Below are positions 21,715-55,192 of a stretch of 64,000 nucleotides of DNA, piece by piece. The position numbers and the translations under genes are program-made. This DNA comes from Eledone cirrhosa. Its lineage: Eukaryota. How positions within the stretch are numbered: position 1 is the stretch's first letter; the number at the start of each line of letters is the position of its first letter. Below the pieces are notes generated by a model. The model did not search any database. It had not been told where the DNA came from and saw only the letters and a program-made list of their open reading frames with translations. The stretch covers positions 29,016,001-29,080,000 of the forward strand of contig OZ024749.1 in NCBI GenBank assembly GCA_964016885.1, in the 5' to 3' direction.

Positions 21715-21924
21715 ATAGGGACGAGTAGGACCCCGACGCCTGAGCTCAAGCCGTTTCGACGGCTAATTCTGGACTAAAATCTTTTTAGTCCAGAATTAGC
21801 CGTCGAAACGGCTTGAGCTCAGCCGTCGGGGTCCTACTCGTCCCTATTACCCACTCTACTACCCTAAGTATTGAGTACTTTGGTGCGTTATGGTCGACCT
21901 GATTCCTTGCCACATTTCCTCCGT
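21715..21924 (+). mobile_element. Fold-back mini-element in (TA)n: 133-bp palindrome plus tail, with the 3' half of a hammerhead
   Basis: ATAGGGACGAGTAGG...TAAAA TCT TTTTAGTCC...CCTACTCGTCCCTAT; contains GAA-ACGGCT-TGAGCTC-AGCCGT-C; second truncated copy at 35640-35716. Confidence 0.8.
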
Positions 21925-21969
21925 TATATATATATATATATATATATATATATATATATATATATATAT

Positions 21970-22160
21970 ATGATGTTTAATAAAGAAATGGCTTCTACAG
22001 GACTAGAACTGTTTCATTCAAAAGAAATCATCACAAGGAAAGCTTGAATGAAACAGTTCTGTAGAAACCATTTCTATATTAAACATTATATTTACACTCT
22101 ACTAATGTATTGAGTACCTTACTTACTGTGGTTACCCCCATTTGAACCCGGGACTCATTT
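21970..22160 (+). mobile_element. Fold-back mini-element in (TA)n (CTACAGGACTAGAAC family)
   Basis: Imperfect palindrome 21970-22089 plus tail; relatives at 38310 and 53371. Confidence 0.75.
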
Positions 22161-23091
22161 ATATATTTATTTATAGATGTATGTGTATCCCCAGTACAAT
22201 ACGCTCATCATAAAACGGAACACTGATGTTATTAAACATCCTTTCCATTTCTTTATTCAATATATTTACTTCTTCATTTCTCATACAAAAAAAATAAACG
22301 CAAAATTAATTTCAACAAATTCTTAAGATTTAATCAACAGTTTCATTTTTAATAAAACATAACATTTCCTGCATCTTTGTAAAAAAAAAAAAAAAATCTG
22401 GAATAACTTTTGTTATTGTTGATGTTGTTTGTTATTTTTTTCTGAAATAGTAAACAAAATACTATTTGAAGTTTATTAAATAGAACTAAAATAGGAGTTG
22501 GGTGTGTTGGAAGGAATAAATATTCGTTATTGTCCATTTATAAACCTACCAAATGTTAAAACCTCGTTCATTGTCCTTGTTACTACTAGCGCCATCTTTA
22601 TATTTCTCCACAGCATCAGCCATCTTGTTTAATTTACACCATGTATTAAAGGAAAAAAAAGTTTGATTTTTTTCTTCCTTTCTTTAATAATAACAACCCG
22701 TTGACATAGAACGCTAAAGCTAATATGTCGGCAATGGGCTGGCTTGAAGCATTTCCGGTGTTTCTTGTTCACTAGACACACAAACCAACTCGTTGTCGCT
22801 ATTATTGCTTTCGTTTGATTGCATCGGTTGACTATATTTGATCTAGAAGACGGCTAATTAATCAGTGTAATTGAATCTTGTTCAACGGAGATTCAATAAT
22901 CACGGTGACAGCCTCCAACACCTCCAGCACCATCAGCACCACCACTGCCGTCTGACTAGTCAAATATTTGTTCTCTGTCGAATCCATTCACAAAACTACC
23001 AGCTCCGCAATTATCATCGAGAAGAAATTATATTTATTTGTTTGGATTCTATTAAACAAATTAATGGTTTATTTTCTCCAAGTAGATATGG

Positions 23092-23412
23092 CATAAGGAG
23101 TCTTCTGCAAAATAAATAATATTTTAACCTATTCAGCACGTGGTAACACGTGAAGGCGCGTGGCTTAGTGGTTAAGGTGTTCGGCTAACGATCGTAAAGC
23201 TGTGGGTTTCATTCCCGGCGGCGTTTTATGTCCTTGAGCGAGACACTTTATTTCACGCTACTCCATAAGGATCCTTCTGCAAAATAAATAATATTTTAAC
23301 CTATTCAGCACGTGGTAACATGTGAAGGCGCGTGGCTTAGTGGTTAAGGTGTTCAACTCACGATCGTAACGATGTGAGTTTGACTCGCAGCGGCGCTTTG
23401 TGTCCTTGAGCA
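23092..23412 (+). mobile_element. ~170-bp tandem duplication containing SINE family B heads
   Basis: CATAAGGA..CTTCTGCAAAATAAATAATATTTTAACCTATTCAGCACGTGGTAACA.GTGAAGGCGCGTGGCTTAGTGGTTAAGG occurs twice. Confidence 0.8.
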
Positions 23413-23589
23413 AATTTAGACACAAAGACAACAATTTGTGTGGAGGAGAAAGTTGAGTACATCGACCCCAGTTCGTGACTCGTACTTCCCGGAAGTATGA
23501 AAGGCAAGCCTAACCTAAGCGGGATTTGATCTCATAATGTCAAGGGCGGTAACTAAATGCTCCTAAGCATTTTGTCCGACACTCTAAAA

Positions 23590-24306
23590 GCTGGTGAGAC
23601 AATGCGCCAGCTTCAGCATTCCGTAATCAGAAGGGAGGTAGGTTTGATGCCGAGTGCTATATGGCTAGAATGAAAATCGGTGCTGCGAAAACTGAGACAT
23701 ATCTTCTTAAAGAAGCCTGCGCAGTGCACTCTACATGTAAATGGTGTTCCATTGTAGCAGATAGAGAAGTTCAAGTATCTCGGGATAGTGTTCCCGAGTG
23801 ATGGAAGGCAGGAGGCTGAATTAAATGCAAGATTTGTAAGAGCTTGTGCAGTAATGCGCCAGCTTTAGCATTCGGTAATCAGAAGAAGGGAGGTAGGTGT
23901 AAAAGCCAAAATCACTATCTTCAATTCGGTATTCCTGCCAAAACTTACCTAGGGTCATGAATTTTGGGTAATGACCGAAAGAATACGATCGCGAATACAA
24001 GCTGCCGAAATGGGGTTCCCCCGAAGGGTTTTTAGAGTAACGTTATTCGATAGAGTGCGAAGTTCGGAGATCAGAGATGCACTCCAGGTAGAGCTGCTAA
24101 TTCTCCGAATTGAGCGATCATAGCTCCGATACTATGGGCATAGGGCTAGAATGTCTCAGGAAAGAATCGCTGGACAGATTTTACGGACAAAAACAAACGG
24201 TAGGAGACCCTGTGGTAGCCCCTGAGCAAGATGGTTGGATAACATCCATGAGCTTGGCTGGTCTCGCTTGGGGAACCAGCCGGATCAGTTGGAGATGGTT
24301 GCTTTT
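23590..24306 (+). mobile_element. RTE-clade LINE, decayed RT C-terminal fragment followed by (GAA)n
   Basis: Translates with stops to EKFKYLGIVFPSDG...GHEFWVMTERIRSRIQAAEMGF...DRVRSSEIR...RWLDNI. Confidence 0.82.
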
Positions 24307-52754: not shown

Positions 52755-53187
52755 ATATATTAACAAATGGAAACTATATTTATAAAACCATATTTATTTT
52801 ATTATACATATTTCAAGGGCCACCAAGGCAAATTATGGTGCGCTTTCATCAGATAAAATACAATACAGATTTGTTTTATAAATAAATATTGACATACCCT
52901 GAAAAAAGACAACCTTAACGGTTGGAGCTTCCTGGATAGTTTTTTCAGGGTATGTCAATATTTATTTATAAAATAAATCTGTATTGTATTTTATCTGATG
53001 AAAGCGCACCATAATTTGCCTTGGTGGCCCTTGAAATATGTATAATAAAATAAATATGGTTTTATAAATATAGTTTCCATTTGTTAATATATTGTATATT
53101 TACTCCACTAATTTGTTGAGTGCTTTATATCAGTTATAAAAATGTTTAAGCTTGTTGAATCCCAACACATTAAATATAACCTCTGCA
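52755..53187 (+). mobile_element. Fold-back mini-element with hammerhead (family of the 47690-47865 end)
   Basis: Arms 52755-52907 and 52940-53092, tail 53093-53187. Confidence 0.9.
52987..53052 (+). ncRNA. Type I hammerhead ribozyme (mirror copy 52795-52860, minus)
   Basis: TATTTTAT-CTGATGA-AAGCGCACCA TAATTTGCCT TGGTGGCCCTT-GAAA-TATGTA-TA-ATAAAATA. Confidence 0.78.
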
Positions 53188-53370
53188 TATATATATATAT
53201 TATATTATATATATATATATATATATATATATATATATATATATATATATATATATATATATATATATATATATATATATATATATATATATATATATAT
53301 AATATTATATATATATATATATATATATATATATATATATATATATATATATATATATATATATATATAA

Positions 53371-53545
53371 ATAATTTAATATAGAAATGGTTTCTACCGG
53401 ACTAGAACTGTTTCATTCGAAAGAAATCATCATTTACTTCAAATAAAACAGTTCTAGTCCTGTAGAAGCCATTTCTATATTGAATTTTGTATATACTCTA
53501 CAATTGTATTGAGTACCTTCCTTACCATGGTTACCCCTGTTGATG
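53371..53545 (+). mobile_element. Fold-back mini-element (CTACAGGACTAGAAC family)
   Basis: Imperfect palindrome 53371-53488 plus tail ACTCTACAATTGTATTGAGTACC...GGTTACCCC, as at 22096. Confidence 0.75.
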
Positions 53546-53789
53546 GATGCGAAATCCGAAATATAGGGACAATTAAATCTCTTCCAAGGTAACTCTATCT
53601 CGTGTTATTATTTTACGCTCTTTCCTACGTTTCTCTACACACTATACGTCTCATTCTACATTTCCTCTTACATCTCTCTTCACCACCGGAGTCTGTTACC
53701 CGGAGATTTACCCATCTGCATTGTTGAGGCTTCCAAAACGACCTATTTTTTTATATATAAATATCATCATCATCATCATCATCATCATC

Positions 53790-53987
53790 ATCATCATCAT
53801 CCTTTAATGTACATCTTCCATGCTAACATGGGCAGGATAAGTTGACCTTTAGGGAAAGAATCAGGTCAGAGGACCATGTTAGCTCAATCAGGTGAGCTAA
53901 ACATGGTCCTCTGACCTAATTCTCTCCCTAAGGATCAACCCAACCTACCCATTCTAGCGTGGAAGATGGACGTTAAACGATGATGAT
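53790..53987. repeat. ~200-bp palindrome with (CAT)n/(ATG)n ends
   Basis: Inner AGGTCAGAGGACCATGTTTAGCTCA/TGAGCTAAACATGGTCCTCTGACCT is perfect; outer arms are diverged. Confidence 0.8.
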
Positions 53988-54071
53988 ATGTATATATATA
54001 TATATATATATATATATATATATATATATATATATATATATATATATATATATATATATATATATATATAT

Positions 54072-55192
54072 ATGAATGTATATATAATGTATTTTGCAAT
54101 ACACTTTATGCTTAATTAAAAGCATTTTGAAGACCGTAAATAATCAGGAACTGATTATACAGAGCGGTTGCCGGTCAGGCAGAAATTAAAAATTAGAATT
54201 GGAGCTCTGAAATAGCAATATATATATGAATGTATATATAATGTATTTTGCAATACACTTTATGCTTAATTAAAAGCATTTTGAAGACCGTATGCTATTG
54301 TTTTAGAGTAGTGACAAACTCACTTACTTTAATCTCAGCAAACAAGGGGAGATAAGCCGACAAGGCCTTGTTTCGCATTTATTGATGCTTATCAAGGCTA
54401 ACTACTCCCTCCTGTCTACTGAGATCACTGATGTTATATTCTTATAGAATTCTAGTAAATAATCAGGAGCTGATTATACAGAGCGGTTGCCGGTCAGGCA
54501 GAAATTAAAAATTAGAATTGGAGCTCTGAAATAGCAATATATATATGAATGTATATATAATGTATTTTGCAATACACTTTATGCTTAATTAAAAGCATTT
54601 TGAAGACCGTATGCTATTGTTTTAGAGTAGTGACAGACTCACTTACTTTAATTTTCAGAGGAGTAGTTGGCTTTGATAAGCATCAATAAATGCGAAACAA
54701 GGCCTTGTCATCTTTATCTCCCTTGTTTACTGAAAATTAAAGTAAGTGAGTCTGTCACTACTCTAAAACAATAGCATAAGGTCTTCGAAATGCTTTTAAT
54801 TAAGCATACAGTGTATTGCAAAATACACTATATATACATTCATATATATATATATATATATATATATATATATATATATATATATATATATATATATATA
54901 TATATATATATATATATATATATATATATATATGTGTGTGTGTGTGTGTATATATATATAAAATATAAGTATGGACTGCATGACTTGGAATATTGTATGT
55001 ATCGGACCTCCGTCGGTTTTGACGACGAATATTCCAACTTGTTTGCTGAGATTAAAGTAAGTGAGTTTGTCACTACTCTAAAACAATAGCATACGGTCTT
55101 CAAAATGCTTTTAATTAAGCATAAAGTGTATTGCAAAATACATTATATATACATTCATATATATATATTGCTATTTCAGAGCTCCAATTCTA
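54072..55192. mobile_element. Composite of partial tandem and inverted terminal-repeat-like copies with hammerheads
   Basis: TGAATGTATATATAATGTATTTTGCAATACAC block direct at about 54072, 54226 and 54546, inverted ending about 54842 and 55157. Confidence 0.8.
54347..54409 (-). ncRNA. Type I hammerhead ribozyme, U3-A8 variant core
   Basis: GGGAG..AGCC-TTGATAA-GCAT CAATAA ATGC-GAAA-CAAGGCCTTG-TC-GGCT..CTCCC; second copy 54660-54722 (+). Confidence 0.78.

Follow-up and report, generated by a model that had tools for sequence, protein, structure and literature searches.

Insertions of Penelope-like elements (PLEs) that carry an inverted copy and a tail at one end and that target (TA)n arrays are known from the relevant passages of Craig 2021 (PMC8557442, Fig. 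2) and Arkhipova 2013 (PMC3846280), and the origin of tandem and inverted PLE insertions is named there, in Craig 2021, as an open question. For the Anolis Poseidon element PAc in vitro, passages of Frangieh 2024 (PMC11167929) report that the PLE protein cuts and extends both strands, that two internal RNA start sites bound the tail and that product length follows the RNA 5′ end; a dimer is predicted, hammerhead cleavage is dispensable, and the later steps are left unvalidated. In Schistosoma, opposite-strand minimal hammerheads 100-700 bp apart have been ascribed to truncated PLEs in a passage of Cervera and de la Pena 2014 (PMC4209133). Here we analyzed 64,000 nt of the Eledone cirrhosa genome (assembly GCA_964016885.1, contig OZ024749.1, positions 29,016,001 to 29,080,000 of the forward strand; this whole stretch is called the window and is numbered from its first nucleotide), which contains numerous palindromes, each with two inverted arms and an unpaired tail, lying mostly in (TA)n arrays.

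We consider it likely that these palindromes are short insertions of PLE terminal repeats in (TA)n, produced by two primings on opposite strands, run-off at the RNA 5′ end and joining of the products. According to this scheme, the element protein would nick both strands of the (TA)n array, a step for which another PLE offers in vitro precedent. Two fixed sites on the RNA, an inner one and an outer one 35-100 nt beyond it, would then each serve to prime one of the strands. We observe both fixed ends and the way in which they are paired; their role as priming sites would follow the model of Frangieh 2024. Because both sites lie 60-730 nt behind the promoter of the terminal repeat, a transcript starting there would yield only short cDNA. 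Finally, the two cDNA 3′ ends would be joined head-to-head through microhomology or filler; the junctions are observed, the pathway is presumed. Longer and full-length copies would come from read-through RNAs, on which the same two sites lie behind the open reading frame (ORF). The palindromes are insertion stumps and not a self-propagating class and, lacking the TATA box, would be dead on arrival.

A preliminary description had listed ten palindromes between 21715 and 54842, and self-comparison of the window recovered all of them in place, with arm-to-arm identities of 90-99.7% across 39-714 aligned nt (Table 1). The common architecture proposed for them (microsatellite, inverted arm, short or no loop, direct arm, tail, microsatellite) was found exactly in eight of the ten and not in the other two: at 38310 the left flank is (TG)n instead of (TA)n, and 54546 terminates a 319-bp tandem array, its left neighbour being another element unit and not a microsatellite. 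The tail lies on the left side in 35828, 51982 and 52456. At 35828, the same initiator-like motif begins both arms and a short duplicated filler separates them; at 51982 a self-complementary word of 4 nt, immediately behind the presumed start, joins the arms. The ten sort into seven repeat families (F1 to F6 and F4b), in line with the several unrelated families described before.

Each productive query of the same genome yielded 36-1236 candidates at first look; no more than 40 of these were scored and 20-30 retrieved. Long F1 copies extend upstream into a frame with reverse transcriptase (RT) and endonuclease (EN) whose motifs match, by eye, the Hydra rows of the Craig supplement (Hydra-1_Obim); F1 combines the Hydra RT motifs, again read by eye, with a C-terminal EN and the (TA)n target that characterize the Hydra clade. 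Upstream, F3 extends into an RT-EN frame of 480 aa whose Cys linker is short and, judged by eye from the rows of Fig. S2, Nematis-like, and F5 into a GIY-YIG frame that has a Pfam GIY-YIG match and, by eye, a Neptune-like Cys linker. Pfam gave zero matches for the F1 and F3 frames, and both were read by motif. All three families correspond to PLE 3′ ends; the labels Hydra-, Nematis- and Neptune-like for F1, F3 and F5 denote a resemblance seen by eye. In these three families a single ORF with PLE-type RT and GIY-YIG lies upstream of the repeat, and a tail between two fixed 3′ ends accompanies an inverted 5′ copy, the configuration of EN+ PLEs. The PLE origin already proposed for the palindromes is, with arms of F1, F3 and F5 that run upstream into RT and/or GIY-YIG frames, almost certain. 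A short stem-loop motif in the tail, just behind the inner site, is common to F1, F2, F4, F4b and the Hydra consensus of the Craig supplement, and is a candidate protein-binding element; the exact F1-F3 motifs were not found in the parts of that supplement examined.

The two 3′ ends of each family, inner and outer, nearly always continue into (TA)n. Among all loci examined of F1, F2, F4, F4b and F5, 122 of 133 head-to-head pairs joined one outer to one inner end; the remaining 11 comprised one inner+inner pair, no outer+outer pair and 10 that could not be classified. Because the tail was present in most queries, these counts are biased against inner+inner pairs among central copies. The same pattern was seen in pairs not selected by the query (30 of 39 outer+inner, one inner+inner, 8 unclassed), where the unpaired copies had 33 outer and 46 inner ends, and with an F1 query consisting of the arm only (15 of 15 outer+inner). 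Likewise, 13 of 16 F3 pairs were outer+inner.

At the opposite end of the arms, palindrome centres of F1, F2, F4b and F5 cluster at a wall located 28-34 nt behind a TATA-like box. In F1, 55 of 107 tail-anchored 5′ ends fell at +28 to +33 from this box and 10 further upstream. The F2 TATA box was predicted from minor subfamilies and then found at 196 places, against 0 for a control pattern; of 100 matches listed, 89 have a spacer of 24 nt even though the spacers themselves are divergent. F2 5′ ends begin at +30 and none lies between +5 and +29. The corresponding figures were 6 of 30 ends at +32 in F4b and 12 of 55 at +31 to +34 in F5. Among 21 non-T cases, 14 had a non-genomic G just before the start (p about 0.002, calculated by hand), and runs of 11-21 T were also present; we tentatively attribute these to cap copying and untemplated additions. 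Judged from genomic DNA, the wall is likely to be a transcription start. The wall might instead reflect, still after two separate primings, pausing of the reverse transcriptase at RNA structure such as hammerhead stems or nearby hairpins, an explanation that suits the position of the F1 and F2 walls within or just before the hammerhead region and the fact that some copies pass the wall. We regard it as unlikely, because the wall recurs at the same distance from a TATA-like box in four families with unrelated local sequence, lies about 55 nt upstream of the hammerhead in F4b and is present in F5, where a hammerhead is not evident; moreover, the extra G and the long T runs fit run-off, and a 248-nt F1 tandem unit (locus L028) begins exactly at the wall. 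Arm length largely corresponds to the distance from start to inner site in each family, which accounts for the MITE-like sizes (MITE, miniature inverted-repeat transposable element) of the palindromes.

The 5′ ends of the two arms are independent of each other. The tail-less arm extended more than 3 nt further 5′ in 44 of the 122 outer+inner pairs and the tailed arm in 25, while 53 ended within 3 nt of each other. At several loci (L173, L178, L186, L057, L158) the tailed partner stops within the tail while the other arm reaches the wall. Opposite-strand joints were also present in raw Illumina reads of three further samples of this species. Placed on L019, an F1 reference without fold-back, the joints had one side at 1503-1510, the wall, and the other at 1542-1581, and more than 2000 reads per run leave the F1 inner site into (TA)n. 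The preliminary description had offered cDNA fold-back or a second priming event as origin. If a single cDNA from the outer site folded back, copied itself and rejoined (TA)n at the inner site, the one-tail shape would follow automatically, and the 53 symmetric pairs as well as the bases shared between arms would be accounted for: non-majority bases common to both arms exceeded those of shuffled pairs in F1 (33 vs a mean of 8 and a maximum of 21), F4 (61 vs 9) and F5 (22 vs 3.6), but not significantly in F2 and F4b. Such sharing shows a common source lineage, not necessarily one molecule. A copied arm, however, cannot be longer than its template, and simple fold-back is excluded by the 44 pairs in which the tail-less arm outreaches the tailed one; tail-only partners, seen also as raw-read joints (1504 with 1573; 1503 with 1581), and the common solo inner-site copies argue in the same direction. 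Fold-back is therefore contradicted as the general route and quite improbable, although it could be the source of a minority of symmetric cases, and the second priming event is the part of the earlier proposal that is supported. All in all, two separate primings are very probable. Of the 107 tail-anchored F1 copies, 11 end near the inner site (+88 to +92), as expected if two primings collide on one RNA; whether both primings take place on one RNA molecule appears to us evenly balanced.

It is highly improbable that the palindromes move as units, either as DNA MITEs or as self-propagating palindromic elements, as their family-typical sizes and an identical centre at two loci with unrelated flanks (L094, L100) might suggest: centres and fillers vary between copies, the ends are asymmetric where symmetric terminal inverted repeats around a fixed shared interior would mark a DNA MITE, and arms run into PLE ORFs. 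Since centres differ between copies, each palindrome was built at insertion. This observation, together with the fact that the architecture is already drawn in Craig 2021 Fig. 2, lends no support to the new class once proposed, and the convergence of several families, suggested as perhaps undescribed, is a shared PLE mechanism. Long-read fold-back chimeras or assembly artefacts, which would agree with the lack of an independent contig across the 35828 centre, are very improbable as an origin, given that the two arms are 0.3-10% divergent, that their ends coincide with fixed sites of the element, that fillers are present and that the same opposite-strand joints recur in the Illumina reads of three samples. 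A step in restriction-site-associated (RAD) read depth at L019:1511 apparently reflects a restriction site and was not used.

Several points weigh against two primings with promoter run-off. In the passages of Frangieh 2024 (PMC11167929) on PAc, no difference in start-site use was seen between the strands. Several F6 loci break the one-tail rule. In F3, F4 and F6 the clustering of ends is weaker and coincides with initiator-like motifs that have no clear TATA at −30; the F3 wall is defined by 3 ends from 2 loci, and the majority of F3 and F4 ends do not reach any wall. For F3 and F4 we relied on context listings, since indels distorted the reference-based 5′ ends (peak at 250). The TATA-like patterns of F1 and F5 were picked post hoc, and a TATA-like word would occur at that distance by chance with a probability of 1-16%, depending on the family and reaching 16% in F4b. 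Many of the extra Gs could stem from the partner arm. Among Logan contigs of three runs, compared with 35828-37737, none bridges the 35828 centre. Most loci are best matches to window copies, which over-represents young copies, and F2, F4, F4b and F6 were tied to no ORF within the loci examined.

Beyond the palindromes themselves, we entertain, at somewhat less than even chance, the view that coupled twin priming is the normal mode of PLE integration across Hydra, Neptune and Nematis, whereby a dimer on one RNA would engage two sites flanking the stem-loop, extend both nicked strands and mostly run off, in strong-stop-like fashion, at the capped start. If this were true, the ~10^5 palindrome centres of this genome would record, as fossils, where PLE transcription starts, and read-through RNA would be the only source of full-length copies.

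With regard to the ribozymes, the statement that most arms contain a whole or partial hammerhead agrees with our count of seven palindromes in ten. With a strict type-I scan, 37354 and 52755 each proved to have a complete motif in either arm, and the window gave 6 sites versus 0 in each of 20 shuffles. The hammerhead cores of the three F2 copies of the window are damaged or cut, while a full core is present elsewhere in the family; 21715 retains the 3′ half only, 54546 has a core of U3-A8 type, and no convincing hammerhead was seen in 35828, 51982 and 52456. By motif, the terminal repeats of F2, F4 and F4b carry a hammerhead, F6 a variant and F1 a degenerate form, and none is evident in F3 and F5. 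Rfam at E≤1 gave no hammerhead among the 150 listed of 186 matches, which consisted only of microRNA models driven by microsatellites or hairpins and one other family, and no clean hammerhead structure emerged when hammerheads and tails were folded as single strands. A hammerhead-like word in antisense F3 sequence, which is not conserved between copies, was left out of the count. Hammerhead cleavage was rejected as the source of the F1 wall, as 0 of 107 ends lie at the predicted cut (+73). The 5′ hammerhead core of F1 lies upstream of the inferred start (L019:1455-1545), and so does the 5′ strand of stem I in F2; only read-through RNA would therefore hold a complete ribozyme in these families. 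F6 is built of 319-320-bp tandem units, each with a type-I hammerhead of U3-A8 core, the tandem organization of non-LTR (long terminal repeat) retrozymes. Another tandem, at L028:1005-1643, repeats the 248-nt F1 unit, which runs from the presumed transcription start to just behind the probable start codon; it suggests template jumping that creates retrozyme-like arrays.

To estimate abundance, forty evenly spaced 10-kb stretches (400 kb) of the 3.0-Gb assembly were sampled. They contained 33 palindromes, of which 18 adjoin a TA run (PLE identity was checked for part of these 18, and the TA run is central in three), together with 41 anchor matches for the seven families. In the window we counted 13 palindromes, 9 of them adjoining TA. 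The special density that had been suggested for it thus shrinks to about threefold over the genome sample (9 in 64 kb vs 18 in 400 kb), and palindromes of this kind are roughly expected to number in the order of 10^5 genome-wide. Three further palindromes of the window have no adjoining (TA)n: 53803-53977 is a diverged repeat flanked by (CAT)n, and 45703-45799 and 55889-55963 match none of the examined loci.

Table 1. Palindromes and related repeat copies in the window, with palindromes named by the position used in the text
Position	Strand	Feature	Palindrome	Layout and remarks
8443..10475	-	Longer F3-related PLE with RT coding remnants		Outside the range of the preliminary description; inverted 5′ copy ends at inner site, tail at opposite end (palindrome shape at 2 kb)
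21715..21925	+	F1 (Hydra-type PLE) stump	21715	Inverted arm 21715-21778 to inner site; A/T filler; direct arm 21783-21847; tail to 21925 (outer site); full-length relatives L031-L033
21970..22156	+	F2 stump	21970	Arms 21970-22035, 22046-22090; tail to about 22156; damaged hammerhead core in left arm
35636..35714	+	Solo F1 arm		Ends at inner site, between (TA)n arrays; absent from the preliminary description
35828..37343	-	F3 (Nematis-like PLE) insertion	35828	Tail 35828-35882; arms 35883-36604, 36623-37343
37354..37738	+	F4b stump	37354	Arms 37355-37490, 37499-37643; complete type-I hammerhead motif in each arm; tail to 37738
38310..38503	+	F2 stump	38310	(TG)n left flank; arms 38310-38354, 38362-38403
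47600..47866	+	F4-related copy		Complete hammerhead motif; ends at inner site
51982..52408	-	F5 (Neptune-like PLE) stump	51982	Tail 51982-52023; arms 52024-52215, 52220-52408
52456..52712	-	F5 stump	52456	Shorter arms, 52490-52598, 52599-52712
52756..53187	+	F4 stump	52755	Arms 52756-52939, 52940-53094; complete hammerhead motif in each arm; tail to 53187
53372..53540	+	F2 stump with tail	53371	Arms 53372-53432, 53433-53488
54072..54845	.	F6 inverted tandem of 319-bp retrozyme-like unit	54546	Array 54072-54660 and direct arm to 54845; U3-A8 type hammerhead core
55038..55194	+	Solo F6 copy		Ends at outer site

Other features accompany the palindromes. The last exon of a paired-like homeobox gene lies at 18922-19647 (-), with a homeodomain C-terminus recognized by eye and an OAR motif (Pfam PF03826), and the palindromes sit in upstream or intronic DNA of this gene. 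Two non-LTR copies with RVT_1, which we take to be R4/Dong-like, lie tail to tail at 25241-27510 (+) and 29470-32420 (-); they are 94% alike and flanked by (AAT)n. A GIY-YIG fragment with a Neptune-like Cys linker is found at 48166-48606 (+). Long tandem arrays occupy 1-5995, 44295-44904 and 56900-57600 (33-bp and 48-bp units; one stretch appears as repeated reading frames). Elsewhere in the genome, at locus L216, an inverted F1 tail is fused directly to F5 arms, representing either a nested insertion or a cross-family join.

The feature described here is genuine, and both its element type and its shape are known already; what is new is a proposed quantitative mechanism. Our literature searches found neither twin priming, nor promoter run-off, nor the three rules of one-tail pairing, independent arm ends and promoter-bounded centres for PLEs, older subscription papers (Schostak 2008; Evgen'ev and Arkhipova 2005) lying outside their coverage, and the examined passages of a 2026 paper on Octopus vulgaris repeats do not mention palindromes. 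If the twin-priming reading holds, it would explain the long-unexplained shape of Penelope insertions. The genomic record yields three sharp predictions: that the two start sites are used as a pair, that the cDNAs end independently of each other and that they run off at the promoter start. In practical terms, stumps present in very large number could be mis-annotated in repeat libraries as MITEs or microRNA-like hairpins.

In twin priming of L1, the second nicked strand primes internally and an inversion results; each of the two cDNAs is copied from a different part of the RNA, and the position of the second priming is opportunistic. In the palindromes, by contrast, the positions of both sites are fixed, and the same stretch is usually copied into both cDNAs. 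The PLE insertions in the passages of Craig 2021 and Arkhipova 2013 resemble ours in the inverted copy of the 5′ end, the tail at one end, the (TA)n targeting (Hydra, Naiad) and the hammerhead in the terminal repeat, and also in the TATA box and initiator of the pseudo-LTR (pLTR), noted there for one rotifer element. They differ in that the minimal form is the commonest product here, and the one-tail pairing rule and the promoter-bounded centre are absent from those passages. The Schistosoma hammerheads share the opposite-strand pairing of motifs and the U3-A8 core variant, as in F6, but are covered by one sentence of the passage, without anatomy or mechanism. Non-LTR retrozymes, in the parts of bioRxiv 10.64898/2026.07.22.740005 concerned, are matched by F6 as a short tandem non-coding unit bearing a hammerhead, whereas apart from F6 and one F1 tandem the other families consist of single truncated copies. 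Finally, Anolis PAc as presented in the passages of Frangieh 2024 has in common with these families two RT start sites bounding the tail, extension of both strands and a product length set by the RNA 5′ end; it is a Penelope/Poseidon element studied in vitro, with its sites inside the ORF and inverted products not covered in those passages, whereas the two sites of F1 lie about 100 nt before the likely start codon and are used as a pair.

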